Made by a program: the position numbers and the translations under genes | Origin: Candidatus Firestoneibacteriota bacterium | GTDB lineage: Bacteria > Oederibacteriota > D2-FULL-39-29 > JBDRBU01 | Assembly (NCBI GenBank): GCA_043822305.1 | Contig: JBDRBU010000006.1 | Span: 1-40,030, forward strand | Length of the DNA stretch: 40,030 nt | Direction of reading: 5' to 3' | Notes under the pieces: model-generated | Seen by the model: the letters and a program-made list of their open reading frames with translations, nothing else | Database searches by the model: none | What the model was told of the DNA's origin: nothing | Shown: one piece after another, positions 1 to 31,187 of the stretch | How the letters are laid out: the number at the start of each line of letters is the position of its first letter | Numbering within the stretch: the first letter of the stretch is position 1

Positions 1-2
1 AC

Positions 3-778: not shown

Positions 779-782
779 CTTT

Positions 783-2168: not shown

Positions 2169-2204
2169 TTTTAATGATTTTTGGCAGGGGTTAAAGACCC
2201 TGCA

Positions 2205-4130: not shown

Positions 4131-4132
4131 AC

Positions 4133-5791: not shown

Positions 5792-5795
5792 TTTC

Positions 5796-6014: not shown

Positions 6015-6328
6015 ATTGATATGCATTTAAGTTGCTCTAAAATTATTTTTTGAAGTTCTTGATATTTTAAATTTAAAGTTCTGGTTGATGTTAGGATTAT
6101 AATATTTCTCCCTTTTTTTATTTCTCCTGCATTTGATCTAATAATTGCCCTGATTCTTCTTTTTATCTTATTTCTTTCATGAGATTCGCTCTTCCCGACC
6201 AGAGCCACACCAAATTTCAACAAAGCATCTTTTCTTTCTTGAACGAGTATAGTTATCTGTTTCCCTTTGTATCTCAAACCTTCAGAAAAAATTTTTTTTA
6301 TTTCATTTCTTTTTAAGGAATCAAACAT
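6011..6328 (-). CDS. rnpA: Ribonuclease P protein component RnpA
   Basis: 105 aa, basic. [28 protein letters not shown] resembles the RnpA RNR motif region. Conserved position between rpmH and yidD. Confidence 0.85.
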
Positions 6329-6450
6329 TTTCTTTTTTTTGCTCTTCTTCTTTGTAAAACTCTTCGGCCATCCTTGGTTCTTATCCTTTTTAAAAATCCG
6401 TGCGTCCTTTTTCTTTTCCTGACATGCGGTTGAAATGTTCTTTTGGGCAT
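6313..6450 (-). CDS. rpmH: 50S ribosomal protein L34
   Basis: Not in the ORF track (45 aa). Minus-strand translation reads [45 protein letters not shown], matching the L34 consensus MKRTFQPS..KR.R.HGFR.RM.T..GR.VL.RRRAKGR. SD ggaggt lies upstream. Confidence 0.85.
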
Positions 6451-6594
6451 TTTACCTCCGTTTAAAATTTATAGTCTGGTTACTTTCGTAACCAACTATT
6501 CCTGATATTATTTATTTACATTATAGAAAGTCATTGATATTTTCTTTTGAAGATGTTATTATAACCTAATAAATTTCTTTTGTCAAATTTTATC

Positions 6595-6623
6595 TTGACA
6601 ATTTAATTTATTAGTATTATTAT
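6595..6623 (+). promoter_or_regulatory. Near-consensus sigma-70-type promoter (TTGACA-17 nt-TATTAT), reading towards dnaA
   Basis: TTGACA at 6595-6600, a 17-nt spacer, TATTAT at 6618-6623. The -35 element is also the right arm of the inverted repeat ttgtcaa(6580-6586)/ttgacaa(6595-6601). Confidence 0.35.
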
Positions 6624-6677
6624 TTAGTAAAGTATTTTTTTTGTCATGGCGAGCCCTGTACCGGTAAATAGTCAGTG

Positions 6678-6736
6678 AAAGCCGTGAGGATTGTATTCCC
6701 CCTTTGTTAAGGGGGAATTAAAAAATAGACGGCTTT
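6678..6736 (+). other. Nested inverted-repeat structure (candidate small RNA or leader element) between rpmH and dnaA
   Basis: Outer stem aaagccgt (6678-6685) / acggcttt (6729-6736). Inner perfect 10-bp hairpin attccccctt-tgtt-aagggggaat (6695-6718). A T-run (ttttatt) follows the outer stem. It lies ~50-110 nt downstream of the predicted promoter. Confidence 0.3.
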
Positions 6737-6803
6737 TATTAAATATTTACCATTATACTATATATTGTAGAGAGATACACTTATTAACACTATAAATTGT
6801 GGT

Positions 6804-6812
6804 TGTGGATAA
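6804..6812. promoter_or_regulatory. Perfect DnaA box (TGTGGATAA, the reverse complement of TTATCCACA) upstream of dnaA
   Basis: Exact 9-mer. TTATTAACA lies at 6782-6790 just upstream. Confidence 0.6.
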
Positions 6813-6870
6813 CTCATAAAAACTCTTATAAAATAAAGAGTTTTATAGATATTAACACTGTTGATAAGTT

Positions 6871-6879
6871 TGTGGATAA
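6871..6879. promoter_or_regulatory. Perfect DnaA box (TGTGGATAA), 17 nt upstream of the dnaA start codon
   Basis: Exact 9-mer inside the N-terminal extension of the track ORF 6797. Supports 6896 as the true dnaA start. Confidence 0.6.
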
Positions 6880-6895
6880 AGTCATAAGGAAAGCC

Positions 6896-8251
6896 ATGGA
6901 TAGTATTTCAATTTGGAACATATTGCTTGATGAACTAAAGAAAACAGTTAACAAACATAGTTTTGCTACCTGGTTTACTCCCACAAAATTCATATCTTAT
7001 AATGATAATGTTGTAACGATTGAGGTACAAAATAATTTTTCGAAAGAATGGTTAGAGAAAAATTACCTTTCAATTATTGAAGAGACTTTAAAAACATTAG
7101 AGAATAAAGACATAAAAGTGTCTTTTATTGTTTCAGAAAATCAATTTTTGCCAATAACAACCCCTGTCCACACTCAAAGCTTGGAAAATCAAAACCAAGC
7201 ACCCGATAACAGTACGATCATAGGTTCTCCTTTAAACCCAAAATATATTTTTGAAAACTTTATAGTCGGGGATAGTAACAGATTTGCAAATGGAGCCTGT
7301 GTTTCCGTAGCAAAATCTCCTGCAAAATCTTACAATCCTGTGTTTATCTATGGTGGAGTAGGGCTGGGGAAAACACATTTACTACACGCCATAGGTAATT
7401 TTATAAAAAAAGAAGTTCCTGCTTCAAAAATTGCTTATCTTTCTTCGGAACAATTTTTAAATGAGATGATAAGTGCCTTAGTAGCCGGTAAGATGAAAAT
7501 AGAAGATTTTAGGAATAAATACCGTTTGGTAGATGTTTTATTAATAGACGATATACAATTTTTAGAAGGTAAGGAAATGATGCAGGAAGAATTTTTTCAT
7601 ACTTTTAATGTTTTATATGATGCCAATAAACAAATTGTGGCCACATGTGATAGCAAACCTCAGGAGCTTAAAATAGAAGAAAGGTTAAAATCAAGATTTG
7701 AAATGGGTTTAATAGCAGATATAATACCGCCCGATCTTGAAACAAGAGTGGCCATTCTTAAAAAGAAAGGGGAAGGTGAAAAAATTTTTCTAACCAATGA
7801 TATTTGCTTATTTATTGCAAATCTAATTAATGATGATGTAAGGAAATTGGAAGGTTGTTTAACAAAATTAATTGCATATGCTTCAATCACAAAATCAAAA
7901 ATTTCTTTAGATTTAGCCAAAGAATGTTTAAAAGAAATATTTACTATAACTCCAGAGAAAAAGGCAACCGTAGAAAGCATAAAAGACGCTGTAGTTAAAT
8001 ATTACAAGTTAAGGCCTTTGGATATGGCTACCAAAAAAAGAACTCAACCGGCAGCATTTGCCAGACAGGTGGCCATGTATATTACCAGAGAACTTACAGA
8101 TATGAGTTTACCGGAGATAGGACAAAATTTTGGCGGAAGAGATCATTCAACAGTCATACATGCATATGAAACAATAAACAATAAAAAAGAAACGGATTTA
8201 GTTTTTAGTGAAGAATTAAAAAATATTATTACTTTAATAAATAAAAGTTAA
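6896..8251 (+). CDS. dnaA: Chromosomal replication initiator protein DnaA
   Basis: N-terminus MDSISIWNILLDELKK..FATWFTPTKF is DnaA-like. AAA+ Walker A GGVGLGKTHLLHAIGN. C-terminal DNA-binding domain. Start moved from the track's 6797 to 6896 because the extension covers the DnaA boxes. Confidence 0.93.
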   Translation: MDSISIWNILLDELKKTVNKHSFATWFTPTKFISYNDNVVTIEVQNNFSKEWLEKNYLSIIEETLKTLENKDIKVSFIVSENQFLPITTPVHTQSLENQNQAPDNSTIIGSPLNPKYIFENFIVGDSNRFANGACVSVAKSPAKSYNPVFIYGGVGLGKTHLLHAIGNFIKKEVPASKIAYLSSEQFLNEMISALVAGKMKIEDFRNKYRLVDVLLIDDIQFLEGKEMMQEEFFHTFNVLYDANKQIVATCDSKPQELKIEERLKSRFEMGLIADIIPPDLETRVAILKKKGEGEKIFLTNDICLFIANLINDDVRKLEGCLTKLIAYASITKSKISLDLAKECLKEIFTITPEKKATVESIKDAVVKYYKLRPLDMATKKRTQPAAFARQVAMYITRELTDMSLPEIGQNFGGRDHSTVIHAYETINNKKETDLVFSEELKNIITLINKS

Positions 8252-8267
8252 CACTATTATAAACATT

Positions 8268-8428
8268 TTATTAACACAATCTTTTTTTTAACTTATTAAC
8301 AATCTCCACAGGTAAATAACATTTTATTAACATATTTATTAACAAGAATATATATATATATTTCTATTGTTTTTAGTCTTATCAACATGCTACCGGACTA
8401 TAATAATAATAATAATATTTATATATTG
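8268..8428. promoter_or_regulatory. Putative oriC core: cluster of five same-orientation DnaA-box-like 9-mers TTAT(T/C)AACA plus an AT-rich DNA-unwinding element
   Basis: TTATTAACA at 8268, 8293, 8324 and 8336; TTATCAACA at 8379. (AT)7 at 8349-8362 and (ATA)n at 8401-8428. Canonical dnaA-dnaN intergenic location. Confidence 0.6.
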
Positions 8429-8507
8429 ATTTAGTAAAAGTAATTAAGTATAATATAAATGTGATAGCCTAATTTATTAGGCTAATTTATTAGAGGAGGA
8501 AATGTTT

Positions 8508-9611
8508 ATGAAAATGATATGTAAAAAAGTAGAATTGTTAGAAAGTGTTCAAAAAATAGAAGGAGCTGTAAGTATAAAAACACCTTTACCGGTATTAAAT
8601 AATTTTTTAATGGAAAGTGTAGATAAAAAATTACAATTAATAGCAACTGACTTAGAAATAACCATAAAATGTTTAACGGAAGATATTAATATTATAAAAG
8701 CAGGTTCAATAACTATCCCGGCTAAAAAATTTATTGATATTATAAGAGAATTACCGGAGGCGGAGATAAATATAGAAGTAAATGACAAAAATTTAATAAC
8801 CATTATATGTAATAAAACTATATATAAAATAATGGGTTTACCAAAATCAGAATTTCCGGCTATTTTAGAGCCTAAAAAAGAAATTACTAATCTAAAAATT
8901 AATCAAGGATTATTAAAAAATATGATCAGGAAAACTGTTTTTTCTGCTTCTACTGATGAAACTAGAAAAACATTAACCGGAGTGTTTTTAATAATTGAAG
9001 ATAAAGAAATAAAGATGGTAGGAACAGATGGGCATAGATTAGCCTTTATAAAAGAAAACATTGGGAAAGAAGCCAAAAATGTTAAGGTAATCATTCCCAC
9101 AAAAATACTAAATGAGTTAACAAGACTTTTAAAAGATGATGATCAAGATATAGATATATCAATATTAGAAAATCAAATTATCTTTAAATTCAATGATTTA
9201 GTTCTAATCTCAAGGTTAATAGAAGGACAGTATCCAAGTTATGAACAAATAATAAATAAAATATTTGATAAAAAGATAAAAGTAGAAAAAGAAGCATTTT
9301 TAAGGGCAGTAAAAAGAGTTTCACTTCTGGCTATGAATGAAGCCACGGCCATAAAATTAAAAGCAGTAGATAATAAACTTGTGATTAATACAGTGGCCGC
9401 TGATATTGGAGAAGCAGAAGAAGAAATACCAGCAGAATATAAAGGAGAAGAAATCCTAATTTCGTTTAATGCAAAATACACAATGGATGTATTAAGAGTT
9501 ATAGATCAAAACGAAATTGAAATAGAATTACTTGATTCTACATCGGCTGGATTAATAAAACCACTGAACGATAAAAATTATTTATACATAATTATGCCCA
9601 TTAGACTTTAG
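8508..9611 (+). CDS. dnaN: DNA polymerase III beta subunit (sliding clamp)
   Basis: 367 aa, MKMICKKVELLESVQKIEGAVSIKTPLPVLNNFLMESVDKKLQLIATDLE. AGGAGG lies 8 nt upstream of the ATG at 8508. The track starts two codons earlier, at 8502. Confidence 0.93.
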   Translation: MKMICKKVELLESVQKIEGAVSIKTPLPVLNNFLMESVDKKLQLIATDLEITIKCLTEDINIIKAGSITIPAKKFIDIIRELPEAEINIEVNDKNLITIICNKTIYKIMGLPKSEFPAILEPKKEITNLKINQGLLKNMIRKTVFSASTDETRKTLTGVFLIIEDKEIKMVGTDGHRLAFIKENIGKEAKNVKVIIPTKILNELTRLLKDDDQDIDISILENQIIFKFNDLVLISRLIEGQYPSYEQIINKIFDKKIKVEKEAFLRAVKRVSLLAMNEATAIKLKAVDNKLVINTVAADIGEAEEEIPAEYKGEEILISFNAKYTMDVLRVIDQNEIEIELLDSTSAGLIKPLNDKNYLYIIMPIRL

Positions 9612-9618
9612 TGAAAAA

Positions 9619-9630
9619 GGGTCAGAGTCA
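9619..9630 (+). repeat. GGGTCAGAGTCA motif, copy 2, 7 nt after the dnaN stop
   Basis: TAG-tgaaaaa-GGGTCAGAGTCA-tttgataatc. Same orientation relative to the upstream gene as copy 1. Confidence 0.45.
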
Positions 9631-9771
9631 TTTGATAATCATTTTAACCAAGCAGGATTTACAAAGATTTTATAAATCCTCACTAAATACCGGTAATAGG
9701 TAACCATTCTAAAGGCAAAAAGCCTGATAAACCAAATAAAAATGGGATGTGTCCCTATTAAAGGCTATTAA

Positions 9772-10855
9772 ATGTATCTTAAATCTTTAGAGATCAAAAA
9801 TTTTAGAAATCTTTCAGAAGTTAAATTGCCTGATTTAAACAAGATAAATGTAATTACAGGAGAAAATGCCCAAGGCAAAACAAATCTTCTTGAAAGTATT
9901 TATTTTCTCGCAACCTTAACCTCTAATAGAATAAGCACTTATCAGGATTTAATTAAATATGGGGAAAATTTTTTTTATTTAAAAGCAGAAGTAATAAAAA
10001 ATAATCTTAAAAAATTTTTAGAAGTTAATTTTCTTTACCCAAATAAATTAAGAATAAAAACGAACGAGAAGTTAGTTGCAAAAAAGAGTGATTATAGCGG
10101 TGAACTTAAAGTAGTTAAATTTTCGCTGGAAGATGTAGATATAATAAAAAGAGAACCGGTTAATCGCCGGAGAAGTTTAAATATACTTATTTCACAGGTA
10201 GATAAAGTATATTTGAACAGTTTACATAAATATTATCATATATTAAGTCAAAAGAATAAATTACTTCAACAGGATATTCATCAGACACAAAGTCAAAGGA
10301 ATTTAAATGTGTGGAATGAGCAGTTAGTAAAGGAAGGAGTAAATTTAATAAAAACAAGAATCGATGTTTTGAATTTTTTAGAAAATCATATGGCAAATAT
10401 TCAAGAGCATATCTCGGAAGGAAAAGAAAAAATAAATTTAATTTACAAAAGTTCTTTCGAAATCAAAAATGATATGGAGAAAAATTTTAGAGAAAAGATT
10501 GAAGAAACGAAAAGAGAAGAAAGTTTAAAAAAGATTTCTTTGATAGGTCCCCACAGGGACGATATAGTTTTCCTTATTAATGGTAAAGATTCGAAATATT
10601 TTGCTTCATCTGGGCAACAAAGATCTATTGTTATAAGTTTAAAAATAGCCGAGCATGAATTTCTTAAAAAAGACTCAAATGAAGAAGCGATTATTTTGCT
10701 TGATGATATATTTTTTGAACTCGACGAAAGAAGAAGAAGGTATGCTTTAGATTCTTTTAATAAAGAAGGGGAGATTTTTATGGCGTTAACCTCAGATAAA
10801 GATTGGACAAAATATTTTAATAATGCAAAAGTCATTAAAATGAAAGAAGGGAATA

Positions 10856-10863
<8 letters not shown>
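9772..10863 (+). CDS. recF: DNA replication and repair protein RecF
   Basis: MYLKSLEIKNFRNLSEVKL..VITGENAQGKTNLLESIYFLA (Walker A) and a C-terminal ABC-signature-like region. Confidence 0.93.
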
Positions 10864-13713
<2,850 letters not shown>

Positions 13714-13719
13714 AAGGGG

Positions 13720-14712
13720 GTGAAAGATTTGTTGACATTATTTCGTATTATTTTTATTGTCGTTTGTGGGGTGGTGGGATTTTTTATAGCAGGTAGTTCT
13801 AATAGCTCTTGTTTAACGGGTATTATAATTGGAGTTGTCGGGAGTTTTGTTTTTGTATTATTAGATATTTTTTCCGGCAAGATATCATTAAAGGATTTAT
13901 TAGCCATCTTAGTCGGATTAACATTTGGTTTGATTATTGCCTCTTTGCTTTCATATGGGATTTCGCATATTCCTTCTTTTCAGTCTCCAGAATATGTTTT
14001 TGTCCCGATGATAATTTATCTTATATGTATATATCTTGGCGTTGTAATGGTTTTAAGGAAAAAAGACGAATTCCTCGGATTTAAAAGTTTAGTAGGAATA
14101 AAAAGTTCTGGAAGCACCTCTATTAAAATTTTAGATACCAGTGTTATAATTGATGGCAGAGTTGCAGAGATATTAGAAATAGGTTTTTTGGATGGCGAGA
14201 TTGTAATCCCAAGATTTGTTTTACAGGAACTTCAGATGATAGCCGATTCTCCTGATGCCATTAAAAGAAACAGGGGAAGACGAGGATTAGATATTCTGAA
14301 TAAGATGCAAAAATTATCCTCTAATGTGAAAGTATATGAAGATGATTTTCCTGAAACTCACAAGGTGGATGAAAAACTCTTAAAACTGGCCAAGAAATTA
14401 AACGCAAAGGTTATAACCAACGATTTTAATTTGAATAAAGTTGCAGAATTAGAAAAAATAAAAGCGTTGAATTTAAATGACCTTTCAAATGCTGTTAAAC
14501 CAATTGTTTTACCTGGCGAGGCGATGAAAGTTAGAATATTGAAAGAAGGGAAAGAATTAACCCAAGGAATTGCTTATTTGGATGATGGAACTATGATCGT
14601 GATCGATGGGGCGAAAAATTTTATAAACAAAGACTTGGAAATTATTGTTACTTCAGCCATTCAAACCTCTGCGGGAAGGATGATCTTTGCAAAAAGAAAA
14701 GAAGATAAATGA
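13720..14712 (+). CDS. YacL-like membrane-anchored PIN/TRAM domain protein
   Basis: N-terminal TM helices, then a PIN domain (ILDTSVIIDGRVAEI..IVIPRFVLQELQ) and a C-terminal TRAM-like domain. Conserved position upstream of ispD, as in Bacillus yacL. Confidence 0.75.
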   Translation: MKDLLTLFRIIFIVVCGVVGFFIAGSSNSSCLTGIIIGVVGSFVFVLLDIFSGKISLKDLLAILVGLTFGLIIASLLSYGISHIPSFQSPEYVFVPMIIYLICIYLGVVMVLRKKDEFLGFKSLVGIKSSGSTSIKILDTSVIIDGRVAEILEIGFLDGEIVIPRFVLQELQMIADSPDAIKRNRGRRGLDILNKMQKLSSNVKVYEDDFPETHKVDEKLLKLAKKLNAKVITNDFNLNKVAELEKIKALNLNDLSNAVKPIVLPGEAMKVRILKEGKELTQGIAYLDDGTMIVIDGAKNFINKDLEIIVTSAIQTSAGRMIFAKRKEDK

Positions 14713-15377
14713 GGATATCGGTTGTCATAGTTGCTGCTGGTTTAAGTAAAAGAATAGGTGGTAAAATAAACAAGCCTTATATTTGTTTAAAAGGCTTCCC
14801 TGTTATTTATTATTCCATTTCTATTTTTATTAAGGATCCACAGATTAAAGAAATAATTCTTGTCATAAGAAAGAAAGATGAAAAAACCTGTAAACAGGTT
14901 TTACAAAAATATAATTTTAAAAAAATAAAAATTACTTTTGGAGGCAAGGAAAGGATAGATTCAGTATGTAATGGCTTAAAGAAAGTTAGTAAAGCTACTG
15001 ATATCGTTTTAATTCACGATGCAGCCAGACCTTTTATTACAAGAAAACTAGTAGATAGAATAATAAAAAATGCAGTTAAGTATAAAGCAGTTATCCCCGT
15101 GATTCCCGTTAAAGATACGGTAAAAGAATCTTTAGATAAAAAATTTGTTCATGCAACATTAGACAGGCATAACCTTTTTTTAGTCCAAACACCACAAGGA
15201 TTTGATTACAGATTAATTATTGAGGCGTATAAAAATGCCTGTAAAGATAAGTTTCATTACACAGATGATGCCATGCTTGTTGAAAAAATAAATTATCCGG
15301 TAAAAATTATTCGTGGTGATGAAAAAAACAAGAAAATAACTTTAGGGTCAGACCTTGAATGTGGAATGCGGTTTTAA
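14709..15377 (+). CDS. ispD: 2-C-methyl-D-erythritol 4-phosphate cytidylyltransferase
   Basis: MRISVVIVAAGLSKRIGGKINKPY..IHDAARPF..VQTPQGF. Overlaps the yacL stop by 4 nt. Confidence 0.85.
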   Translation: MRISVVIVAAGLSKRIGGKINKPYICLKGFPVIYYSISIFIKDPQIKEIILVIRKKDEKTCKQVLQKYNFKKIKITFGGKERIDSVCNGLKKVSKATDIVLIHDAARPFITRKLVDRIIKNAVKYKAVIPVIPVKDTVKESLDKKFVHATLDRHNLFLVQTPQGFDYRLIIEAYKNACKDKFHYTDDAMLVEKINYPVKIIRGDEKNKKITLGSDLECGMRF

Positions 15378-15431
15378 GTTATATGTTAAAATCCTTATGA
15401 AATAATTTATTTAAAACAGGAGGTGATAATT

Positions 15432-15521
15432 ATGGTGTATGAAATAGGAGCAGTTGCATTGGTTTTTATGTTTATTGGGTTTATAGTAGGTTATATAGTC
15501 GGCAACAAGACAAGAAAATAA
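15432..15521 (+). CDS. 29-aa single-TM micro-protein (MVYEIGAVALVFMFIGFIVGYIVGNKTRK)
   Basis: Not in the ORF track (below 60 aa). Strong SD aacaggaggtga lies 7 nt before the ATG. It ends 21 nt before the SPFH gene, which has its own SD. Confidence 0.4.
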   Translation: MVYEIGAVALVFMFIGFIVGYIVGNKTRK

Positions 15522-15542
15522 AGATTGAAACAGGAGGATAAA

Positions 15543-16352
15543 ATGAAAGAATACACAAGTAATGATGTAAAAAAAATTACTTTTATGGGCGTAGCCATAG
15601 TTTTAATAGGAATTGGATTAATTATATTCTTTGGAAGTTGGTTTATTGTTGAAGTGGGAGAAGTGGGAGTAACTTTTAATCAGATGACAGGGGTAACGAA
15701 ATCGAATAGTCAGGGCTTTCATTTAAAAATGCCATTGATTGAATCAGTTACAAAATTTGATGTAAAGACACAAAAAATAGAAGTAAGGGCAGATGGTGCT
15801 TCTAAAGATATTCAAACAGTAGTGCTTGATGTTGTCTTAAATTACCATTTGGAATATGAAAAGGTTAACGAATTATTTACTAAAGTTGGAGATGATTATT
15901 GTGATAAAGTAATTACTCCGGCAATTTCCGAGATGGCTAAACTAGCGCTTTCGCTGTATCCAGTTGAGGAAATAATTTCTAAAAGGGAAGAATTAAAAGA
16001 AAAAATACATAAGAACTTGTTAGAGCGGTTGGCTCAGTATAATATTATTTTAGAAAATACTAATTTAACAGATATTGATTTCACAAAAGAATTTAATGAT
16101 ATAGTCGAGAAAAAACAAATAGAGGAGCAAAAGATTAAGACGGCTGAATATCAAAAAAAGCAAGCAGAACAGTTTAAACAAAAAACCATACTTGAAGCTG
16201 AAGGAGAAGCAAGAAAACAAGAATTAATTAAACAAACTGTTACTGATAAAATCATAGACTTAGAATGGATAAAAAAATGGGATGGTCGATTACCTCAAAC
16301 CATGCTTGGCGATAAAACGATGTTTATGGTGACTCCAGGTAAGGAAAAATAG
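15543..16352 (+). CDS. SPFH/band-7 (prohibitin/HflK-C-like) domain membrane protein
   Basis: N-terminal TM, an SPFH core, and a C-terminal coiled-coil with repeated Q/E/K. The ATG at 15543 is preceded by caggagga. The track ORF begins at 15525. Confidence 0.8.
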   Translation: MKEYTSNDVKKITFMGVAIVLIGIGLIIFFGSWFIVEVGEVGVTFNQMTGVTKSNSQGFHLKMPLIESVTKFDVKTQKIEVRADGASKDIQTVVLDVVLNYHLEYEKVNELFTKVGDDYCDKVITPAISEMAKLALSLYPVEEIISKREELKEKIHKNLLERLAQYNIILENTNLTDIDFTKEFNDIVEKKQIEEQKIKTAEYQKKQAEQFKQKTILEAEGEARKQELIKQTVTDKIIDLEWIKKWDGRLPQTMLGDKTMFMVTPGKEK

Positions 16353-16370
16353 AAGAATATGGGGACAGAC

Positions 16371-16391
16371 ACCATATTAATATTGTAATGA
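16371..16391 (+). repeat. Dispersed short repeat, copy 1 (GGGGACAGACACCATATTAAT), 19 nt after the SPFH stop
   Basis: Exact 20-nt match to 23981-24000. In this copy aatatgg / ccatatt form a 7-bp hairpin around ggacagaca. Confidence 0.6.
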
Positions 16392-16442
16392 TGTATATGA
16401 TAAAGAAAGTTGAATCGAGAGTATGATTTTATGAAACAAATC

Positions 16443-19088
16443 TTATACTAACTGATGTAACTTTTGTATCAGATTCTCGAATTCTTTTTCTTTAAAACAA
16501 AACCTTAAATCTAAAAATTTTTGTCTGAATTTTTTTACTTCTTCGTTTATATTTTTATTCTTTATAATAACATCGTGTAGAAATTGGGCAACACACTTAA
16601 AATCTTTTTCTTTCATTCCAAATCTTGTCATTTCAGATACCCCCATTCTAATTGCACTTGAGGCAGTAAATCCTTCTTCTCCCGGCATAACCTGATAGTT
16701 TACTATAATATTATTTTCTTCTAATCTTTTGGCTATCTCGGGTCCTTTTAAATATCCAACATTTACAATTACCTGATGAGTTTCTGTGAAAGATACCGCT
16801 GAATCACCGGCTACATCTATTCCAAGGTCTTTTAATGCTTTAGCTAATGTCTTAGCATTATCAATAACGTTTTTCTGATATTCATCTTTAAAATAATTCA
16901 TCTCATATGTGGCTAAAAGAAGTCCAAGTAATGTCCCTAAATGGTGATTACTTACACTACCCGGAAAAGTTCTATTCTCTATAAATTCCCACAGATGATA
17001 AAGTTTATCGTGTTTATTTAAATTACCTGCGATCACTCCTCTTTGTGTACCAAAAAATGTTTTATGAGTGGAGCCAGTAACTATATCGGCACCTTCTTTA
17101 AATGGTTCCTGAAAGTATGGACCGATGAGTCCTAAAACATGTGCCATATCATACATAATTATACTTTCGATTTTTTGTGCATCTATAAATGTTCTTATTT
17201 CTTCTAATGGCTCCGGATGCAAGACCATACTTTTCCCAAATATGATTAGTTCTGGCTTATATTCTTCGATAATTGTTTTAGTTTTGGATACATCTATCTT
17301 GTATGGATTATTAGACAAGACAGGGAAATTAATAACAGCAGGTTTATCTGTCTTTGGATTTATTTTTACGAAGTTGTGTAATGCTCCCATGGGCTGAGCA
17401 CTTAAATGCCCACCACGAATAATATGGTTATTTAATACACATTGAATTTTTTGTGGTTCGGATTTTTTATCTCCAATATTTAAATAGTCAATCAAAGCAC
17501 TAAAGGTAGCTGTGTTGGCCATCTGCCCGCTTATAATCCTTGTCTCTATCTGTTTACAACCAAAATATTTTTTCATCTCTTCGATCAGTAATTCTTCCAC
17601 CTCATTTATAAAATTAGTTCCCTGATAATAAAATACTTCAATATCGTAAAAAGACTTTATCTTTTTATGTTCCGCATATCTAAAAGAAGGGTCCATTATA
17701 GAAAGAAGCCTGACTAATGGAGATGGTGTCATCTCTGATGGGATTAAATTTATACATTCTTTTTGTCTCCAGTTTGTGTTTTCTATTGTTTTTGTTAAAA
17801 GTTGTTTTACTTTTTCCTGGTAAGTAGCGGCTAATGGTTTTTTTATCTTAACTCCCTGCCCGTATATAATTGGTCTTGCGTAAGGCGGAGTATCTGTTCT
17901 TAAATGAAATGGCACTATAACTGCCTCTACTTTATTCCCGCGTATATCTACAATAATTTTATCATCTTCCTTTAAGTTGCTGTCTAATAGTGCGAGGCAT
18001 ATGGCCCGCATCCCTTTTTCATCCAATAATTTTGTTTCTAAACCCTCTCCGGTTGTTTTCCAGTAAGGCACCATTGTCCCGCTGGTTATATATCCCACTA
18101 ACTTATCATCTTTAAATACTTTAAAACCGGATCTACCTACGCCTTTTCCTAAAATTGCTACGGGCATAACAATTCTTGGAAGGGTTTTTATTAATGAGTA
18201 ATCTTGATTTATAATTTTTTTTAATGCTTCAAACTGAAATAAAAGAGGTTCTTTCCCCAGAAATTCTCCTTTGACCGGTGAGAAAGAACTTGCAAGTCGT
18301 GACAGAGGGCAGGCAAATATTTGAATCTCTTTTCCTTCAATATCGGTTCCTAACTCATGTCCGTATAAAGGCAATCCAGCTTCTAATCTTAAAGTATCTC
18401 TTGCTCCAAGTCCAACAGGTGTTGCTCCTTTTTGTATTAACAAATCCCAGATATCTAAGGCAGAGTTATTATCCATAAAAAGTTCAAAGCCAAGTGGCTC
18501 ACCCGTATAACCAGTTCTGGCTAATAAAACGTTGTTTCCTTTTATCTTAACAATACTTAATGCATTTTTTACTGGCTCAGGCAACTGCCCTTCTTCTATA
18601 ATACTACTAATTATTGTTTTAGAAAGAGGTCCCTGCAAAGAGATCATAGATGATTTATCCGAGTTGTTTTCAATATCTAAATCTTTAAATTTTTTAGCAA
18701 TTAACTGTAAATGATTCCAGTCTTTTTTTTGATTAGATGCATTTACAACTAATATATATTCATCTTTTACAAAGCGGTACAGGTAAGCATCGTCTACTGC
18801 CCCTCCATTTTTGTTTTGAATCATTGTGTATTGTGCTTGACCTATATCTAAAGCAGAAGCATTATTTAGCAAGGCATACTGCAAAAAAGAAAGAGAATCC
18901 AGCCCTTTAATTATAAACCTGCCCATATGAGAGACATCAAATAAACCTGCTTTTTTTCGGGTAGTTAAATGTTCCTCGATAATTCCCGCAGGATATTGAA
19001 TCGGCATATTCCATCCGCCAAAATCAACCAGGGTGGCGCCTGATGAAACATGTTTATCGTAAAGCACTGTCTTTTGTAATTCGCTCAA
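16443..19088 (-). CDS. Fusion protein: N-terminal glycine-cleavage T-protein (aminomethyltransferase GcvT, ~aa 1-400) plus C-terminal serine hydroxymethyltransferase-like PLP domain (~aa 440-881)
   Basis: N-terminus VLYDKHVSSGATLVDFGGWNMPIQYPAGIIEEHLTTRKKAGLFDVSHMGRF and the barrel motif VGYITSG are GcvT. The C-terminus has SHMT-type motifs NLIPSEM, GGHL, DMAHVLGL, and the PLP-lysine block TGSTHKTFFGTQRG (SHMT consensus TTTHKTLRGPRGG). Confidence 0.8.
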   Translation of the reverse strand: MSELQKTVLYDKHVSSGATLVDFGGWNMPIQYPAGIIEEHLTTRKKAGLFDVSHMGRFIIKGLDSLSFLQYALLNNASALDIGQAQYTMIQNKNGGAVDDAYLYRFVKDEYILVVNASNQKKDWNHLQLIAKKFKDLDIENNSDKSSMISLQGPLSKTIISSIIEEGQLPEPVKNALSIVKIKGNNVLLARTGYTGEPLGFELFMDNNSALDIWDLLIQKGATPVGLGARDTLRLEAGLPLYGHELGTDIEGKEIQIFACPLSRLASSFSPVKGEFLGKEPLLFQFEALKKIINQDYSLIKTLPRIVMPVAILGKGVGRSGFKVFKDDKLVGYITSGTMVPYWKTTGEGLETKLLDEKGMRAICLALLDSNLKEDDKIIVDIRGNKVEAVIVPFHLRTDTPPYARPIIYGQGVKIKKPLAATYQEKVKQLLTKTIENTNWRQKECINLIPSEMTPSPLVRLLSIMDPSFRYAEHKKIKSFYDIEVFYYQGTNFINEVEELLIEEMKKYFGCKQIETRIISGQMANTATFSALIDYLNIGDKKSEPQKIQCVLNNHIIRGGHLSAQPMGALHNFVKINPKTDKPAVINFPVLSNNPYKIDVSKTKTIIEEYKPELIIFGKSMVLHPEPLEEIRTFIDAQKIESIIMYDMAHVLGLIGPYFQEPFKEGADIVTGSTHKTFFGTQRGVIAGNLNKHDKLYHLWEFIENRTFPGSVSNHHLGTLLGLLLATYEMNYFKDEYQKNVIDNAKTLAKALKDLGIDVAGDSAVSFTETHQVIVNVGYLKGPEIAKRLEENNIIVNYQVMPGEEGFTASSAIRMGVSEMTRFGMKEKDFKCVAQFLHDVIIKNKNINEEVKKFRQKFLDLRFCFKEKEFENLIQKLHQLV

Positions 19089-19163
19089 TTTATTTCTCCT
19101 TAAGTCTTAATAATACCAAAATAATAACCAAATTTCTATCTTTTTATTGACAAAATATAGTTT

Positions 19164-19841
19164 ATGTTATATATTTATAATATGCCCTGGGATTTCAAAA
19201 AGGAAATAATTAGAAAATCAATTCATCTGCTCTCTATACTCTTTTTATCTATTTATGTATTTTTCGCTGAAGCAGTTAATCATAAGGTTGCACTTTTAAT
19301 ACTTTCTTTTGTTTTAATAATTTTGCTCGAACTTGAATATGCAAGAATTGAGCTTGGGGCTAAGATTCCATTAATTAAAAAACTATGGGAGTATCGAAGG
19401 GAGAAAGAAAAAGAAAATCTGGGGGGAGAGATTTATTTCTTAATAGGTGCTATTATCTGCCTGGCCATATTTGATAAAAGAATTGCCACAGCGGCAATTT
19501 TAATGACTACTTTTGGAGATATGGCCGCAGCAATCATTGGGACTAAATTTGGGAAAACATGGATTCCTTTTTTAAAAAACAGAGCAGTAGAAGGAGTTAT
19601 TGCAGAATTCACAGTAAATTTAATTATAGGATTTTTAGTTCTAAGAAATTATATAAATGAAAGAATGTGGTGGGCAACTTCATTGATCCCAAATGGTGAA
19701 CCCTTGTGGCTTATAATTATTGTTATGGCCTTAACCGCAACTATTGTCGAGACTGTTGTGCATAAATTAGATGATAATTTACTTGTCCCTGTTTTTGCAG
19801 GATTTAATGGTGAAATAGTTTTTCTTATTATGATGTGGTAG
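19164..19841 (+). CDS. Polytopic membrane protein of the CTP_transf_1 superfamily (CdsA / dolichol kinase / phytol kinase-like)
   Basis: 7-8 TM helices. Motif FGDMAAAIIGTKFGK..KNRAVEGVIAEF resembles the GD..A..iG...G...KT.EG signature. The start may be the ATG at 19182. Confidence 0.45.
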   Translation: MLYIYNMPWDFKKEIIRKSIHLLSILFLSIYVFFAEAVNHKVALLILSFVLIILLELEYARIELGAKIPLIKKLWEYRREKEKENLGGEIYFLIGAIICLAIFDKRIATAAILMTTFGDMAAAIIGTKFGKTWIPFLKNRAVEGVIAEFTVNLIIGFLVLRNYINERMWWATSLIPNGEPLWLIIIVMALTATIVETVVHKLDDNLLVPVFAGFNGEIVFLIMMW

Positions 19842-20034: not shown

Positions 20035-23000
20035 ATGCAGAATCAAACATTTCATAAAAAAGAAACTTATTTTTTACTAATTTGGGTCCTCGTTGGGTTA
20101 ATGGGACTGTTTATCTTTTCTATGTTTTACAAACATGCATTTCCACAAGCTGGACTTAAACTTAAAGTAACAGCAGCTCAAGCCCTAAATATTTCCAAAA
20201 ATTTCCTTAAAGAACAGGGGATAAATCTTAATGGTTATAGAAGCAATGTTATTTTTGATGTAGATAATTATTCTCTTATTTACCTTGAACGAGCAGTTGG
20301 TTTAGTAAAGACAAATGAACTTGTTAATAGTAAAGTGTTTATATGGTGGTGGCACTGTCGCTGGTTTAAACCATTGCAAAAGGAAGAGTTTGAAGTAGAT
20401 GTAGACCCTTCAGGAAAAATCAGATTTTTTAGACATAAAATAGAAGAGAAATCTAAAGGAGAGAATTTAGATAAAGAAACCGCTGGAAAAATAGCAGAAG
20501 ATTTTTTGAAAAAAAATAAATCATTGAATCTTTCTGAATATCGTCTAATTGAAGATACATTAACTAAACGACCGAATAGAACTGATTTTTATTTCGTGTG
20601 GGAAGATAAAGAATTTAAAGTTAAAGATGCTACCTATAGACATGAGGTAACAATATTAGGGGATAAAGTAGGAAGGTTTAATGAACATTTAAAAGTACCT
20701 GAAGAATGGATTCATAATTATGAAAAATATTCAGCTAAAGGTAGTTTGTTATCTAATATATTTTGGGTTTTTTATGTTGGTTTAAGTATTGCTCTTTTGA
20801 TTGTTTTTTTATTTAAAATTCGCGCTCGTCAGATTAATTGGAGATTCGGCATTTTTGCAGGAATTGCTCTGGCCATAGTTATTATTATTACTAATATTAA
20901 TTCTATTCCACTATACTGGTCCTCTTATTCTACAACTTCTGAAATAAGTAGTTTTATTTTTTCAATAATAATACAATCTCTAATAGGTGGAGCAACAGCA
21001 GGTCTCATCATTCTAATTATGGCTCCAACTTCTGATTCTTTATCACAAGAAATTTGGAAAGGACATCTGCCTCTTAATAAAATATTTACAAAATCAGGAC
21101 TTGTTTCAAAAGAGTTTATTAAATCTTCTGTGGTTGGTTATTCACTGGCTTTTATTTTTCTTGCATATATTGTAATTTTTTATTTACTTGGACAAAAGAT
21201 TGGAGTATGGGTTCCTCCTGATATTCCATATGATAATATACTCTCAACATATATTCCTTGGATTTATGCATTGCTTATTGGTTTATCTGCTTCTTTAAAT
21301 GAGGAACTCTTATTCCGACTTTTCAGTATACCATTTTTAAAAAAATATTTGAAGTTCACCTGGTTAGCAGTTATTATCCCTGCTATTATATGGGCTTTTT
21401 TACATTCTACTTATCCACAAAGACCTTTTTATATTAGAGGTGTTGAACTTTCTATAGCAGGAATTGTTTTTGGAGTTATATATATACGATATGGTATTTT
21501 AACAACAATCATAACACATTATGTTATAAATGCAACTCTTACAAGTATTCTATTTTTTCAATCATCAAATCTTTATTTTATTATATCTGGTTTTTTAGTA
21601 ATTGGGGTGATACTCATTCCAATTTTACCTGTTTTATTCTCAATTATTACAGGAAAGCGAAAAAAGATCATTGAAGAATATGAAAAATCAGAAGCATTAC
21701 AACAACCTCCTTTAAGTTCGGTAAATATTGATGAGAATATTAAAACAGAAGGACCAACTGTATTATCTCAGATTATCATTGCTAAATATGTTCCTATAAG
21801 TAAAAAGAGTTTAAGAATTCTAATTTTAATAAGTATTTTAAGTATCTGTGTATTTTTTATTATACCTTATAATAAACTTGGTGACTTTATTAATGTTGAA
21901 ATATCAAAGGCCAAAGCATTACAGACAGCAAATCAATATATAAACTCATTAAAAGTACCTCTTAAAGGTTTTGAAAGAAAAGTAATAAGTTTATCAGAAG
22001 AATTAAGTGGCAATAAGTCCCGTTATGTTCTTGAACAATTACCGGTTAAAGAAACTAATGAGTTTTTCAAAAAGGAATTTCCATGTGCTTTATGGACTGT
22101 CTGCTGGTTTAAACCACTTTCCAAAGAAGAATATTATGTAAATGTTGATACAAAAGGTAATGTTTATAGTTATGACCATATATTAGAAGAAGATAAAGAA
22201 GGAGAAAAATTATCGCAACTACAAGCAAGAAAAATAGCAGAAGAGATTTTAACAAAAAACAAGAATATTAAAATTGATAAATATAATTTAATGAATTCTT
22301 CTACTGAAAAAAGAAAAAACCGGAATGACCATTCGTTTACTTGGGAACTAAAAGATTTTAAGATTAAAGAGGCAACCTCTCGTATGAGCATTGAGGTAAA
22401 CGGAAATGAAATTGTTAATTATGATAAATATCTTAAACTACCCGAAGAATGGGTTCGTGAAAAAAGTAAGACAACTTTAATAGAAACGATACAGAGTTCT
22501 ATAATAACTATTATTATTTTAGGTACTGTAATATTATGTGTAGTCCTTTTTATTATAAAATTTGTTAAAAAAGATATTAAATGGAAATTTTCTTTCACCA
22601 TAGCAGGTATTCTTACAAGTTTGTTTGTAGTAGAAAAATTTAATGAACTACCTACTATTTACCTTAATTATATAAATACTGACAGTATTTTAAACTTCTA
22701 CATTCAGCAAGGTATTAGCTTTCTCATCACAACTTCTTTAATGTTTTTATATATAAGTATATTGGTTGCTTTATCTGAATCGTTGTACAGGGAACAATTT
22801 TCAGAACAAAGGACTCTTGATAACTGGTTTAATGAATTTCGTTTTTCTAAATTAAAATCAATAGAATGGTTTGATGCAGCGATGATATGTTTGATAATAC
22901 CAGTTTATGCTGTATGTGAACATTTGTTTCTCTGGGTTAAACAAATCTTTATAGATTCTTCAATTGAAAGGTCGGTTGATATTTCTACTAATTTTATTAA

Positions 23001-23442
23001 TACTTTCTCTCCTGCAATACATATATTAACACAGGGTTTATATTATGCAATTGGAACGATTTTCCTTCTCGCCTTAAGTATTTCATTACTAAAAAAGTAC
23101 ATTAAGAGAGTTGATTATATTCTTGTTTTACTTACTATTTTATTCACAGTTATTACTTGTGATACAACAAAATTGAATATATTCTTATGGGATTTTAGTA
23201 GAAATATTGTTGGAGTACTTTTTATTTATCTAATTATTGTAAAATATATAAAGCATAATTTATTAGCATATTTTTTACTTATGTTTATTGATATTTTAAT
23301 TGAGAGCAGTATTACCCTTATTTCTTATTATTCCTGCCTTGAATACCGCTTAAATGGTCTGATTATTTTATTAATAGTCGTAATACCTTTTTTGTATCTA
23401 ACTCTTCTAAACAAAAGATTAATTTTTAATTTGAGAGAATAA
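20035..23442 (+). CDS. 1135-aa membrane protein built from a tandem duplication of [TM + extracytoplasmic domain + CPBP (CAAX/Abi) intramembrane metalloprotease domain]
   Basis: Paralogous ecto-domains (WWWHCRWFKPLQKEEFEVDVDPSGK vs LWTVCWFKPLSKEEYYVNVDTKGN; LKVPEEWIH vs LKLPEEWVR). The first CPBP half has NEELLFR, FLHS and HYVIN motifs. The second half is degenerate (SESLYRE, CEH). Confidence 0.7.
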   Translation: MQNQTFHKKETYFLLIWVLVGLMGLFIFSMFYKHAFPQAGLKLKVTAAQALNISKNFLKEQGINLNGYRSNVIFDVDNYSLIYLERAVGLVKTNELVNSKVFIWWWHCRWFKPLQKEEFEVDVDPSGKIRFFRHKIEEKSKGENLDKETAGKIAEDFLKKNKSLNLSEYRLIEDTLTKRPNRTDFYFVWEDKEFKVKDATYRHEVTILGDKVGRFNEHLKVPEEWIHNYEKYSAKGSLLSNIFWVFYVGLSIALLIVFLFKIRARQINWRFGIFAGIALAIVIIITNINSIPLYWSSYSTTSEISSFIFSIIIQSLIGGATAGLIILIMAPTSDSLSQEIWKGHLPLNKIFTKSGLVSKEFIKSSVVGYSLAFIFLAYIVIFYLLGQKIGVWVPPDIPYDNILSTYIPWIYALLIGLSASLNEELLFRLFSIPFLKKYLKFTWLAVIIPAIIWAFLHSTYPQRPFYIRGVELSIAGIVFGVIYIRYGILTTIITHYVINATLTSILFFQSSNLYFIISGFLVIGVILIPILPVLFSIITGKRKKIIEEYEKSEALQQPPLSSVNIDENIKTEGPTVLSQIIIAKYVPISKKSLRILILISILSICVFFIIPYNKLGDFINVEISKAKALQTANQYINSLKVPLKGFERKVISLSEELSGNKSRYVLEQLPVKETNEFFKKEFPCALWTVCWFKPLSKEEYYVNVDTKGNVYSYDHILEEDKEGEKLSQLQARKIAEEILTKNKNIKIDKYNLMNSSTEKRKNRNDHSFTWELKDFKIKEATSRMSIEVNGNEIVNYDKYLKLPEEWVREKSKTTLIETIQSSIITIIILGTVILCVVLFIIKFVKKDIKWKFSFTIAGILTSLFVVEKFNELPTIYLNYINTDSILNFYIQQGISFLITTSLMFLYISILVALSESLYREQFSEQRTLDNWFNEFRFSKLKSIEWFDAAMICLIIPVYAVCEHLFLWVKQIFIDSSIERSVDISTNFINTFSPAIHILTQGLYYAIGTIFLLALSISLLKKYIKRVDYILVLLTILFTVITCDTTKLNIFLWDFSRNIVGVLFIYLIIVKYIKHNLLAYFLLMFIDILIESSITLISYYSCLEYRLNGLIILLIVVIPFLYLTLLNKRLIFNLRE

Positions 23443-23518
23443 TTTTATCTTTACCCGTAATATTATGATCTAATAAAATTATCTTTCAAAAATTTGTTTT
23501 ATGTGGTATAACATTCTT

Positions 23519-24022
23519 ATGTCAAATACACGAGTTGGCATAGGTTATGATATACACAGGTTGGTTAAAGGCAGAAAACTTATCTTAGGTGGAGTTCATA
23601 TTCCATTTCCTTTAGGTCTTGATGGTCATTCTGATGCGGATTGTTTAACTCATTCAATAATTGATGCATTACTTGGAGCAACAAACAAAGGTGATATTGG
23701 GAAAATATTTGGTATAGATAAGCCAGAAACAAAAGGGATTTCAAGTTTAATTTTATTAAAAAAAGTTTGGGATAATTTAAAAAAAGATTACAAGATAATA
23801 AACATAGATACGGTTATAGTAGCAGAAAAACCAAAACTCTCAGAATATCTGCCAAAAATGAAAGAAAATATTGCAAAGATTTTGAAAATAAAAAAATCTC
23901 AAATCAGTATAAAATCAACCACTTCAAAAGGATTAGGAGAAATTGGCAAATCAAAAGCAATCGCCTCTTTCACCGTTATAGGGACAGACACCATATTAAT
24001 TTTACACAAACAGCAGGTGTGA
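23519..24022 (+). CDS. ispF: 2-C-methyl-D-erythritol 2,4-cyclodiphosphate synthase
   Basis: MSNTRVGIGYDIHRLVKGRKLILGGVHIPFPLGLDGHSDADCLTHSIIDALLGA. The C-terminal ~12 aa (TDTILILHKQQV) are encoded by a copy of the GGGACAGACACCATATTAAT repeat. Confidence 0.9.
   Translation: MSNTRVGIGYDIHRLVKGRKLILGGVHIPFPLGLDGHSDADCLTHSIIDALLGATNKGDIGKIFGIDKPETKGISSLILLKKVWDNLKKDYKIINIDTVIVAEKPKLSEYLPKMKENIAKILKIKKSQISIKSTTSKGLGEIGKSKAIASFTVIGTDTILILHKQQV
23981..24000 (+). repeat. Dispersed short repeat, copy 2 (GGGACAGACACCATATTAAT), forming the 3' end of ispF
   Basis: Exact 20-nt match to 16372-16391, with similar flanks (ata-gggaca...taat-tt). Confidence 0.6.
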
Positions 24023-29370: not shown

Positions 29371-30366
29371 ATGTCAGAGAATAATTTTGGAAAAGGTGAA
29401 ATTGTAATTTATAAAAGCCCCCAAGGACCGGAAATCCAGGTTAAACTTGACAAAGATACTGTATGGATTGATGCTCATTTAATAGCACGGCTTTTTGATG
29501 TGAATCGTCCGGCAATAGTCAAACATATAAATAATATCTACAAAACTGGTGAATTAAATCCAAAATCAACCTGTTCCATTTTGGAACAGGTTGCTGCTGA
29601 TGGAAAGATTAGGAAAATGAATCTTTATAATTTAGATATGATTATTTCCGTTGGCTACCGTGTTAATTCTAAACGAGCAACCCAATTTCGTATCTGGGCA
29701 ACAAAGACCTTAAAAGACCATTTAATCAATGGCTATACCATTAATGAAAAACGGCTTTTAGAGTCGCGAGGAAAATTTAAAGAATTGCAATCCGCCATTA
29801 CTTTTCTTCATGAAAAATCAAAAAAAGAATTGTTGTCTGGACAAGCAAGTGAGATTTTGAATCTGCTTTCCGGTTATGCCAAAACTCTAACTTTATTAGA
29901 AGAATATGACAAAGGAGAATTGAAAACCGCTAAAGGCAGGAAAGCAAAATTTGTTTTGAAATATAAAGAATATCAACAGATTGTTAAAGAAATTAAAAAA
30001 GAATTAATGACAAAAAAAGAAGCAAGCACATTATTTGGTCAGGAAACAGGTGGAAAATTTGAGGGGATTATAAGAGGGTTATATCAAACTTTTGACAGAA
30101 AAGAATTATATCCAACGATTGAAGATAAAGCAGGGCATCTTTTGTATTTAACTATTAAAGACCATCCATTTACTGACGGCAATAAGCGAATTGGTTCATT
30201 TTTGTTCGTGTATTTTTTGGACAAAAACAATTATCTTTATCGTGGAAATGGAGAAAAGAAAATAAATAATAGTGCCTTAACAGCAATGGCGCTTTTAATT
30301 GCTGAAAGCGATCCCAAAGAAAAAGATATTTTAATTAAAATAATTACCAATCTTATAAGCGATTAA
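29371..30366 (+). CDS. RhuM-family N-terminal domain fused to a Fic/Doc domain (putative AMPylator or toxin)
   Basis: The N-terminal ~120 aa (GEIVIYKSPQGPEIQVKLDKDTVWIDAHLIARLFDV..YNLDMIISVGYRVNSKRATQFRIWATKTLKDHLING) are typical of RhuM. The C-terminal Fic motif is HPFTDGNKRIGSFL. Confidence 0.8.
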   Translation: MSENNFGKGEIVIYKSPQGPEIQVKLDKDTVWIDAHLIARLFDVNRPAIVKHINNIYKTGELNPKSTCSILEQVAADGKIRKMNLYNLDMIISVGYRVNSKRATQFRIWATKTLKDHLINGYTINEKRLLESRGKFKELQSAITFLHEKSKKELLSGQASEILNLLSGYAKTLTLLEEYDKGELKTAKGRKAKFVLKYKEYQQIVKEIKKELMTKKEASTLFGQETGGKFEGIIRGLYQTFDRKELYPTIEDKAGHLLYLTIKDHPFTDGNKRIGSFLFVYFLDKNNYLYRGNGEKKINNSALTAMALLIAESDPKEKDILIKIITNLISD

Positions 30367-30377
30367 TTATTTTCTAT

Positions 30378-31181: not shown

Positions 31182-31187
31182 TCAAAA

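Follow-up and report, generated by a model that had tools for sequence, protein, structure and literature searches.

The window analysed here, a stretch of 40,030 nucleotides (nt) from contig JBDRBU010000006.1 of a Candidatus Firestoneibacteriota bacterium, carries at positions 16443-19088 an open reading frame (ORF) on the minus strand that encodes a single polypeptide of 881 amino acids (aa), in which GcvT, the glycine cleavage system (GCS) T-protein, is joined through a linker to a domain of the serine hydroxymethyltransferase (SHMT) fold. The 881 codons and the stop codon form one uninterrupted frame in which the Pfam domains of both families are present, and translation of the same interval on the plus strand gives many stops. 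As read from the sequence, the start codon is TTG (19086-19088, minus strand), with a ribosome-binding site, AAGGAG (19096-19101, minus strand), located 7 nt 5' of it. The original prediction for this DNA had proposed a single GcvT-SHMT polypeptide at this location without stating the strand; both the polypeptide and its position hold, and the strand is minus. The motifs that it had listed for the SHMT-like part (NLIPSEM, GGHL, DMAHVLGL, and TGSTHKTFFGTQRG) are all found in the translation. A database protein that is 100% identical to the window fusion, from a Candidatus Firestonebacteria metagenome-assembled genome (MAG), bears only the name "glycine cleavage system aminomethyltransferase GcvT".

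The GcvT half comprises residues 1-398. Its folate-binding domain (residues 9-251; 18336-19064, minus strand) matches Pfam GCV_T (PF01571) with an E value of 4e-75, and its C-terminal barrel (residues 252-398; 17895-18335, minus strand) matches GCV_T_C (PF08669) at residues 361-393 with 26.7 bits, barely over the cut-off of 25.9. This barrel contains insertions relative to the canonical 364-aa T-proteins, seen as extra segments in the alignment to the best PDB matches of this half, the T-proteins of T. maritima (1woo) and B. subtilis (1yx2). The scores for the NCBI GcvT equivalog TIGR00528 (263.7, cut-off 235.85) and for the NCBIfam GcvT model NF001567 (316, cut-off 300) both exceed their thresholds. 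In a set of 38 orthologues, D99, D100, N116, E197, R230, and R319 are invariant. D99/D100, N116, and R230 align with the GGxxDD, VVNA, and GARDTLRLEA(G) motifs of 1woo and of the E. coli T-protein (3a8i), with which the RTGYTGE motif is also shared, and we take these positions to be equivalent to the catalytic and folate-binding D97, N113, and R223 of the E. coli enzyme. R319 is the Arg that aligns by motif with the H-protein-contacting Arg of the E. coli T-protein, and it is also invariant in fusions that lie outside glycine cleavage operons. In the AlphaFold2 (AF2) model, the predicted local distance difference test (pLDDT) values are mostly 85-95 for the GcvT half and mostly 80-93 for its barrel. 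These results indicate that residues 1 to ~400 correspond to a full GcvT including the C-terminal barrel, as the original prediction had it.

The linker between the two halves, residues 399-430 (17799-17894, minus strand), is a translated segment of 32 residues, DTPPYARPIIYGQGVKIKKPLAATYQEKVKQL, which contains neither a stop nor a Met. The pLDDT values are below 50 at residues 399-417. Across all fusion clusters, the length of the linker is 36-45 aa and its sequence is poorly conserved. In addition, a group of "long" stand-alone GcvTs of 410-420 aa (P0259, P0261, and similar proteins), which share 51-53% identity with residues 1-411 of the fusion, end in a tail of the form P-x-x-R/I-P-(V/L)-(L/I)-(F/Y)-G-E that corresponds to the start of the linker of the fusion. 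These proteins may represent a pre-fusion or a post-fission form of the T half.

The SHMT half (residues 431-868; 16485-17798, minus strand) is a pyridoxal phosphate (PLP) domain of the archaeal type. Pfam SHMT (PF00464) matches residues 431-836 over profile positions 8-398 of 399 (E 2.8e-40; 138.6 bits, cut-off 27). The codon of the PLP lysine, K676, is located at 17061-17063 (minus strand) within 17058-17069, which translates to THKT, and K676 aligns with the Schiff-base lysine in the THKT motifs of the M. jannaschii SHMT (MjSHMT) and the Salmonella SHMT. Among the 38 orthologues, S451, E452, Y471, E473, Y487/488, H561, D647, H650, H675, K676, R683, and R814 are invariant; the residues of this set align with S35, Y55, E57, Y65, H126, D200, H203, H228, K229, and R363 of the E. 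coli enzyme. The set thus includes the Schiff-base lysine (K676), the Asp facing the pyridine nitrogen (D647), the stacking His (H561), and the Arg for the substrate carboxylate (R814), and the equivalents of E57 and Y65 are retained in the window domain. These results indicate a complete SHMT domain with its PLP lysine, as had been predicted, and on alignment the lysine, whose loss the original prediction had named as a concern, is kept in the family. The closest solved relative is MjSHMT (4uqv/4bhd), with 200 bits over the whole domain, and the bacterial and eukaryotic SHMTs score ~70-99 bits (~90 for those of E. coli and Salmonella), suggesting that the SHMT half forms a divergent subfamily of the archaeal sequence type. 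Stand-alone bacterial SHMT-like proteins with 50-58% identity to it were found in Dehalococcoidia, Aminicenantes, WOR-3, and Aegiribacteria, where no gcvT lies in their vicinity. Since this clade occurs in bacteria as an ordinary single-domain enzyme, tetrahydrofolate (THF) would be the naturally expected carrier of the SHMT half.

The same architecture is conserved far beyond the window. A protein database search returned at least 120 full-length orthologues (876-898 aa, 60-70% identity), all with the same three Pfam domains, in NCBI, JGI, ENA, and Logan assemblies from Firestonebacteria, Elusimicrobia, Desulfobacterales, Planctomycetota/Phycisphaerae, and Acidobacteriota. When each GTDB species was represented by one genome, a scan gave 75 loci, ~54 of them with full-length fusions at 51-64% identity. 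The carriers include the closed genomes of the cultured strains Sporomusa ovata DSM 2662 and Acetobacterium carbinolicum DSM 2925, as well as A. malicum, Desulfamplus magnetovallimortis, Desulfocapsa, and MAGs of Nitrospirota, Desantisbacteria, Pirellulaceae, Terriglobia, and the verrucomicrobial 'Moanabacter'. Cultured sulfate reducers and acetogens, including model acetogens, are represented, and conservation of the fusion extends over at least 10 bacterial phyla or candidate phyla. When 1.84 billion 50%-identity representatives were searched exhaustively with HMMER, at least 11 separate full-length fusion clusters (50% identity) were recovered, the most distant at 36% identity; the divergent cluster members tested with Pfam carry both domains, and 10 of the 11 divergent cluster representatives keep the full catalytic set of both halves. 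For one 889-aa cluster representative (P0244), all of the GcvT catalytic residues are kept and the SHMT half is changed at four positions (K676 to H, H561 to L, H650 to Q, and E473 to T), which makes it a possible "pseudo-SHMT" form of the fusion. A search with the C-terminal domain alone returned mostly contig-truncated fragments of fusions, and the stand-alone relatives came from the species scan and the HMMER pass.

Among 51 fusions (1275 pairs), the pairwise identities of the N- and C-terminal halves were strongly correlated (r = 0.94), and the mean identity was higher for the SHMT half (64%) than for the GcvT half (55%). In a neighbour-joining tree of the C-terminal domain, the fusions were monophyletic with respect to 21 stand-alone SHMT-like genes. 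The correlation and the monophyly fit one old fusion event, after which the gene would have been inherited or transferred as a unit. Overall, these comparisons indicate that both halves are under strong purifying selection and that the fusion is old and widespread in anaerobic bacteria. At three loci (L053, 10001-12654; L079, 4749-7404; L080, 4812-7467), gene callers give separate "GcvT" and "SHMT" genes. Each of these copies contains one or two frameshifts with homology continuous across the break, and in one of them the break lies within the GcvT barrel, away from the domain boundary; natural split genes were therefore rejected as an explanation. The breaks are probably sequencing errors, with contig names that suggest long-read assemblies, and such copies could mislead censuses of domain architecture.

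The genomic context of the fusions was surveyed by clustering all of the ORFs within ±10 kb of the fusions at the 54 loci and annotating the recurrent clusters with Pfam. At 29 or more of the 54 loci, gcvH and/or gcvPA-gcvPB were found on the same strand as the fusion, and no second gcvT or SHMT-like gene was present within 10 kb of any fusion. As no other gcvT lies within this distance, the fusion serves these gcv operons as their T-protein gene, in place of gcvT. In the order typical of Desulfobacterales-type genomes, the genes are lrp-fusion-gcvH-gcvPA-gcvPB(-lipB-lipA), and in a MAG of Elusimicrobia they are lpd-lipB-lipA-fusion-gcvH-gcvPA-gcvPB. For Acetobacterium and its relatives, the order is gcvH-fusion-gcvPA-gcvPB-sdaAB-sdaAA, with the genes of L-serine dehydratase downstream; in A. 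carbinolicum, a riboswitch is followed by these six genes (9598-17113 in locus coordinates), with gaps ranging from overlap to 84 nt. In the Acetobacterium loci, a T-box leader was also observed after this operon (L011, 17413-17682; L009, 17440-17688; L012, 19024-19396). In L011, the T-box is followed by a gene similar to LeuA or citramalate synthase and then by a divergent lrp gene and a glutamate dehydrogenase gene. The surroundings of the Acetobacterium operon are a neighbourhood of amino-acid metabolism.

Riboswitches were detected with a motif regular expression and confirmed with Rfam; a covariance model of our own, built from four aptamers, was dropped, since these were too few and poorly aligned. 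At nine loci (L007, L009, L011, L012, L014, L032, L033, L034, and L044), Rfam places a glycine riboswitch directly upstream of either the fusion gene or the operon that contains it, and two further loci were identified by the motif alone, giving 11 in all. In L033, a tandem glycine riboswitch (9781-9930) precedes a gene start at 10001, and in the Nitrospirota locus L044, a match to the tandem glycine-GGAnGA model (5634-5820) precedes the gene at 5988. In Bacillota, the glycine riboswitch acts on gcvT operons as an ON switch. These results indicate, on the strength of the motif and Rfam matches, that fusion genes are under glycine riboswitch control.

Taken together, the glycine-induced expression, the position in the T slot of the GCS, and the downstream L-serine dehydratase suggest a conversion of two glycines to serine, CO2, and NH3, and then to pyruvate. 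We therefore favour, at a probability of about 0.72, the reading that the fusion would be a glycine-induced bifunctional T-protein/SHMT that makes serine from two glycines and feeds it to pyruvate. The N-terminal half would transfer the one-carbon (C1) unit of aminomethyl-lipoyl-H-protein to THF, releasing 5,10-methylene-THF, NH3, and dihydrolipoyl-H-protein, and the C-terminal half, dependent on PLP, would use methylene-THF and a second glycine to form serine and THF. With separately encoded H-, P-, and L-proteins, two glycines would give serine, CO2, NH3, and NADH, and serine would be converted to pyruvate where serine dehydratase is co-encoded. Both enzyme activities and the use of THF are predicted from homology. 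The link from glycine to serine that the original prediction had drawn has gained strong comparative support from the T slot in the gcvH-PA-PB operons, the sdaAB-sdaAA genes downstream in the Acetobacterium type, and the glycine riboswitches.

Several observations weigh against this assignment. The window copy is an orphan, with no gcvH, gcvP, lpd, lipoate, or folate gene anywhere in the 40 kb, in agreement with the absence of adjacent gcvH, gcvP, and lpd that had been noted originally; no Rfam element was found in the window, the other Firestonebacteria copies are likewise orphans, and ~24 loci besides the window lack gcv genes nearby. The role of the window copy is thus assigned by orthology, its protein being 63-65% identical to the operon-embedded proteins of L001 and L044, and the genes for its H, P, and L partners must lie elsewhere in the genome. 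The SHMT half reaches 268.6 for PRK00011, the NCBI model of bacterial SHMT, which is under the cut-off of 335. The equivalents of E. coli R235 and N347, which contact folate or phosphate, are Q682 and Q799. MjSHMT, the nearest characterised relative, uses tetrahydromethanopterin, not THF. In the AF2 model of the full protein, built from the 38-sequence alignment (mean pLDDT of 70.9), values in the SHMT half are for the most part below 60 and fall below 50 over long segments, which makes the model too unreliable for conclusions in either direction on an inter-domain geometry or tunnel; the shallow alignment and the location of the active sites at a dimer interface are probably responsible.

The proposed direction of the reaction has an alternative. 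In the reductive direction, methylene-THF, CO2, and NH3 would give glycine, and glycine with a further methylene-THF would give serine and then pyruvate, with two methylene-THF consumers co-localised in one protein instead of an intermediate handed from one site to the other. This would take place in acetogens and sulfate reducers, which form methylene-THF from CO2 or formate. Most of the hosts are indeed organisms of the Wood-Ljungdahl or anaerobic C1 type (Acetobacterium, Sporomusa, and Desulfobacterales), the genes gcvH, the fusion, gcvPA, gcvPB, sdaAB, and sdaAA correspond exactly to the enzymes that lie downstream of methylene-THF in the reductive glycine pathway, and all of the reactions are reversible. 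However, the riboswitches at 11 loci point to induction by surplus glycine, which is the cleavage direction, and neither formate-THF ligase nor folD was among the annotated neighbours. Reductive operation is therefore unlikely, and it would in any case be compatible with the bifunctional T-protein/SHMT, because the enzyme is the same. The possibility that the gene is an artefact of assembly or frameshift joining two adjacent genes, which the original prediction had raised, is negligible: although the window is part of a MAG contig and a few database copies are split, the architecture, at 876-885 aa, recurs intact in at least 120 independent clusters and in closed genomes of cultured strains, the length of the linker is conserved, and the split copies are themselves the frameshifted ones described above, with continuous homology and one break inside the GcvT barrel.

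The two other alternatives concern what each half does. Instead of an SHMT, the C-terminal domain might be a PLP enzyme of a related kind (an aldolase or a transaldolase), or else an ordinary T-protein might carry it as a non-catalytic module for dimerisation or regulation. The shortfall against the NCBIfam SHMT cut-off would accord with this, as would the threonine transaldolase ObiH (7k34) as its third-best PDB match and the loss of the PLP lysine and three other catalytic residues in P0244, which shows that some part of the family tolerates a non-catalytic role. Conversely, the whole SHMT residue set is invariant in the clade of the window, and the SHMT half is more conserved than the GcvT half. 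In addition, the score for the fluorothreonine transaldolase model TIGR04506 (160.1) does not reach its cut-off of 650, the stand-alone relatives (50-58% identity) occur as ordinary single genes in Dehalococcoidia, Aminicenantes, and WOR-3, and a serine product would be in keeping with the linkage to serine dehydratase; a C-terminal domain without SHMT function is therefore improbable. The GcvT-like half, for its part, might act only as a folate-dependent trap or donor of C1 units for the SHMT half in a protein that works alone, independently of H-protein, much like the GcvT-like domains of dimethylglycine oxidase, sarcosine oxidase, and trimethylamine N-oxide demethylase. This would explain the orphans, as nearly half of the loci, the window included, lack gcv neighbours, and GcvT-fold domains fused to C1-releasing enzymes provide precedents (the soxA and Tdm matches in NCBIfam and PDB). 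However, the N-terminal half passes the GcvT equivalog cut-off and scores far below those of the H-protein-independent GcvT-fold families soxA (101.8 against 1164), Tdm (124.5 against 1100), and DmdA (52.2 against 410), at least 29 gcv operons have the fusion in place of gcvT, R319 is invariant in the orphans also, and many bacteria scatter their gcv genes. An H-protein-independent module is therefore highly improbable, and the bifunctional T-protein/SHMT acting with H-, P-, and L-proteins remains the preferred reading.

For the bifunctional enzyme, the SHMT half would be expected to mediate a dimer carrying two T domains. The benefit of the fusion could lie in a 1:1 stoichiometry, in the local recycling of THF, or in keeping the C1 unit of glycine away from the bulk folate pool, which serves the Wood-Ljungdahl pathway. 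Channelling of methylene-THF between the two sites is conceivable on purely theoretical grounds.

The order of genes in the window is mnmE, yidC, and rnpA, followed by dnaA, dnaN, recF, dciA, gyrB, a PIN-TRAM gene, ispD, an SPFH gene, and the fusion on the minus strand; beyond the fusion come the genes of a 225-aa membrane protein and a 1135-aa CAAX/DUF4901 protein, ispF, gltX, and uppP. Positions 1-14000 constitute the region of the replication origin, with mnmE, a HEAT-repeat protein gene, yidC, and rnpA on the minus strand and dnaA, dnaN, recF, dciA, and gyrB on the plus strand; the sign of the GC skew reverses at around 6.5-7 kb. The fusion is the sole non-overlapping minus-strand ORF of at least 100 aa to the right of dnaA, and would thus be a lagging-strand gene. 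Farther along, at 29371-32135 (plus strand), the genes of a RhuM/Fic-domain protein, an NAD-synthase-like (PP-loop) protein, and an N6/N4 DNA methylase lie in a row, which could be a small defence or mobile islet.

The original prediction had placed the fusion inside an insertion that splits ispD from ispF. These two genes do flank the region (ispD, 14709-15377; ispF, 23501-24022), whereas an insertion is not borne out: the flanks show no direct or inverted repeats beyond AT-rich chance matches, no tRNA, and no integrase, and the GC content is flat, with no compositional break around the fusion. In the closest relative, L081 (69% identity of the fusion), the divergent pair of the fusion and the membrane-protein gene adjoins ispF, with pyrG-purF-carB-carA on the other side. 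This synteny argues for a native context of the fusion, and the insertion was rejected.

The 225-aa multi-pass membrane protein (19164-19841, plus strand), divergent from the fusion, has no Pfam match. It is 81% identical to the gene at the same position in L081 and is thus more conserved than the fusion itself, to which it is probably not functionally linked. Its TFGDMAAAIIGxKFGK...EG motif is reminiscent of a polyprenol/dolichol kinase or a protein of the CTP_transf_1 type, a candidate assignment that would fit the ispD/ispF surroundings. The 1135-aa protein (20035-23442, plus strand), which combines DUF4901 (YcdB/YcdC repeats) with an Rce1-like CAAX protease, lies between the membrane-protein gene and ispF and is missing from the corresponding position in L081.

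Compared with GcvT (EC 2.1.2.10; 1woo, 1yx2, and E. coli 3a8i), the fusion has the same three-domain fold region, the conserved Asp, Asn, and Arg, the T slot in the operon, and the riboswitches, but its T half is ~400 aa rather than ~364 aa, with insertions in the barrel, and a C-terminal PLP domain of 480 aa follows. The SHMT half shares with MjSHMT the GSTHKTFFG and FPGxVSNHHL motifs and a Gln at the position of E. coli R235, whereas MjSHMT is a stand-alone enzyme that uses tetrahydromethanopterin and the window domain is fused to GcvT and contains extra loops at ~475-485 and ~535-590; the hosts of the fusion are bacteria, for which THF is the expected carrier. With bacterial GlyA (E. coli 1dfo and Salmonella 3gbx), it shares the fold and the residues for PLP and the substrate carboxylate, but scores only ~90 bits, carries NLIPSE(Q/M) in place of ELIASEN, and has Q799 at the position of E. 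coli N347.

The net chemistry proposed, two glycines to serine, CO2, and NH3, is that of the glycine decarboxylase complex and SHMT of plant mitochondria in photorespiration, and the Acetobacterium operon encodes exactly the core set of the reductive glycine pathway, namely the GCS, SHMT, and serine deaminase. In both of these systems, the T-protein and SHMT are separate, whereas in the fusion they are covalently joined. Dimethylglycine oxidase, the alpha subunit of sarcosine oxidase, and the trimethylamine N-oxide demethylase 9q5a are similar in that a folate-binding GcvT fold is fused to a partner and a labile C1 unit is handed over; however, their GcvT-fold domains are H-protein-independent and the partner, an oxidase or a demethylase, makes the C1 unit, whereas here a PLP enzyme would consume it.

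No NCBIfam model specific for the fusion was found in a profile scan of the window protein, no PDB chain matched both halves in a PDB search, and a full-text literature search retrieved no published description of a GcvT-SHMT fusion, in line with the earlier remark that it was not known as a described enzyme. A ribosome-profiling paper on A. woodii handles the 'gcvTHP' cluster of that species, expressed heterologously, as a plain GCS. Both halves are members of textbook families, and the novelty lies in the covalent fusion, in how broadly it occurs, and in its naming as "GcvT" alone in the databases searched. This naming leaves the SHMT capacity under-annotated, so that metabolic reconstructions may wrongly infer a missing or single glyA.

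The GCS and SHMT are the central folate enzymes of glycine and serine metabolism and the core of the reductive glycine pathway that is being engineered for the assimilation of formate and CO2. For the channelling of labile methylene-THF as a substrate, the fusion offers a candidate as yet unexplored, and its cultured hosts (Acetobacterium and Sporomusa ovata) make it directly testable. Tentatively, and with the odds leaning against it, the protein might be a self-contained "glycine-to-serine synthase", in which one folate, possibly polyglutamylated, would stay bound and shuttle between the T site and the SHMT site of an SHMT-mediated dimer. If so, the fusion would offer a ready-made natural part for engineering of the reductive glycine pathway, and the C1 unit from glycine would be kept out of the bulk folate pool altogether, giving Wood-Ljungdahl anaerobes a private C1 circuit.

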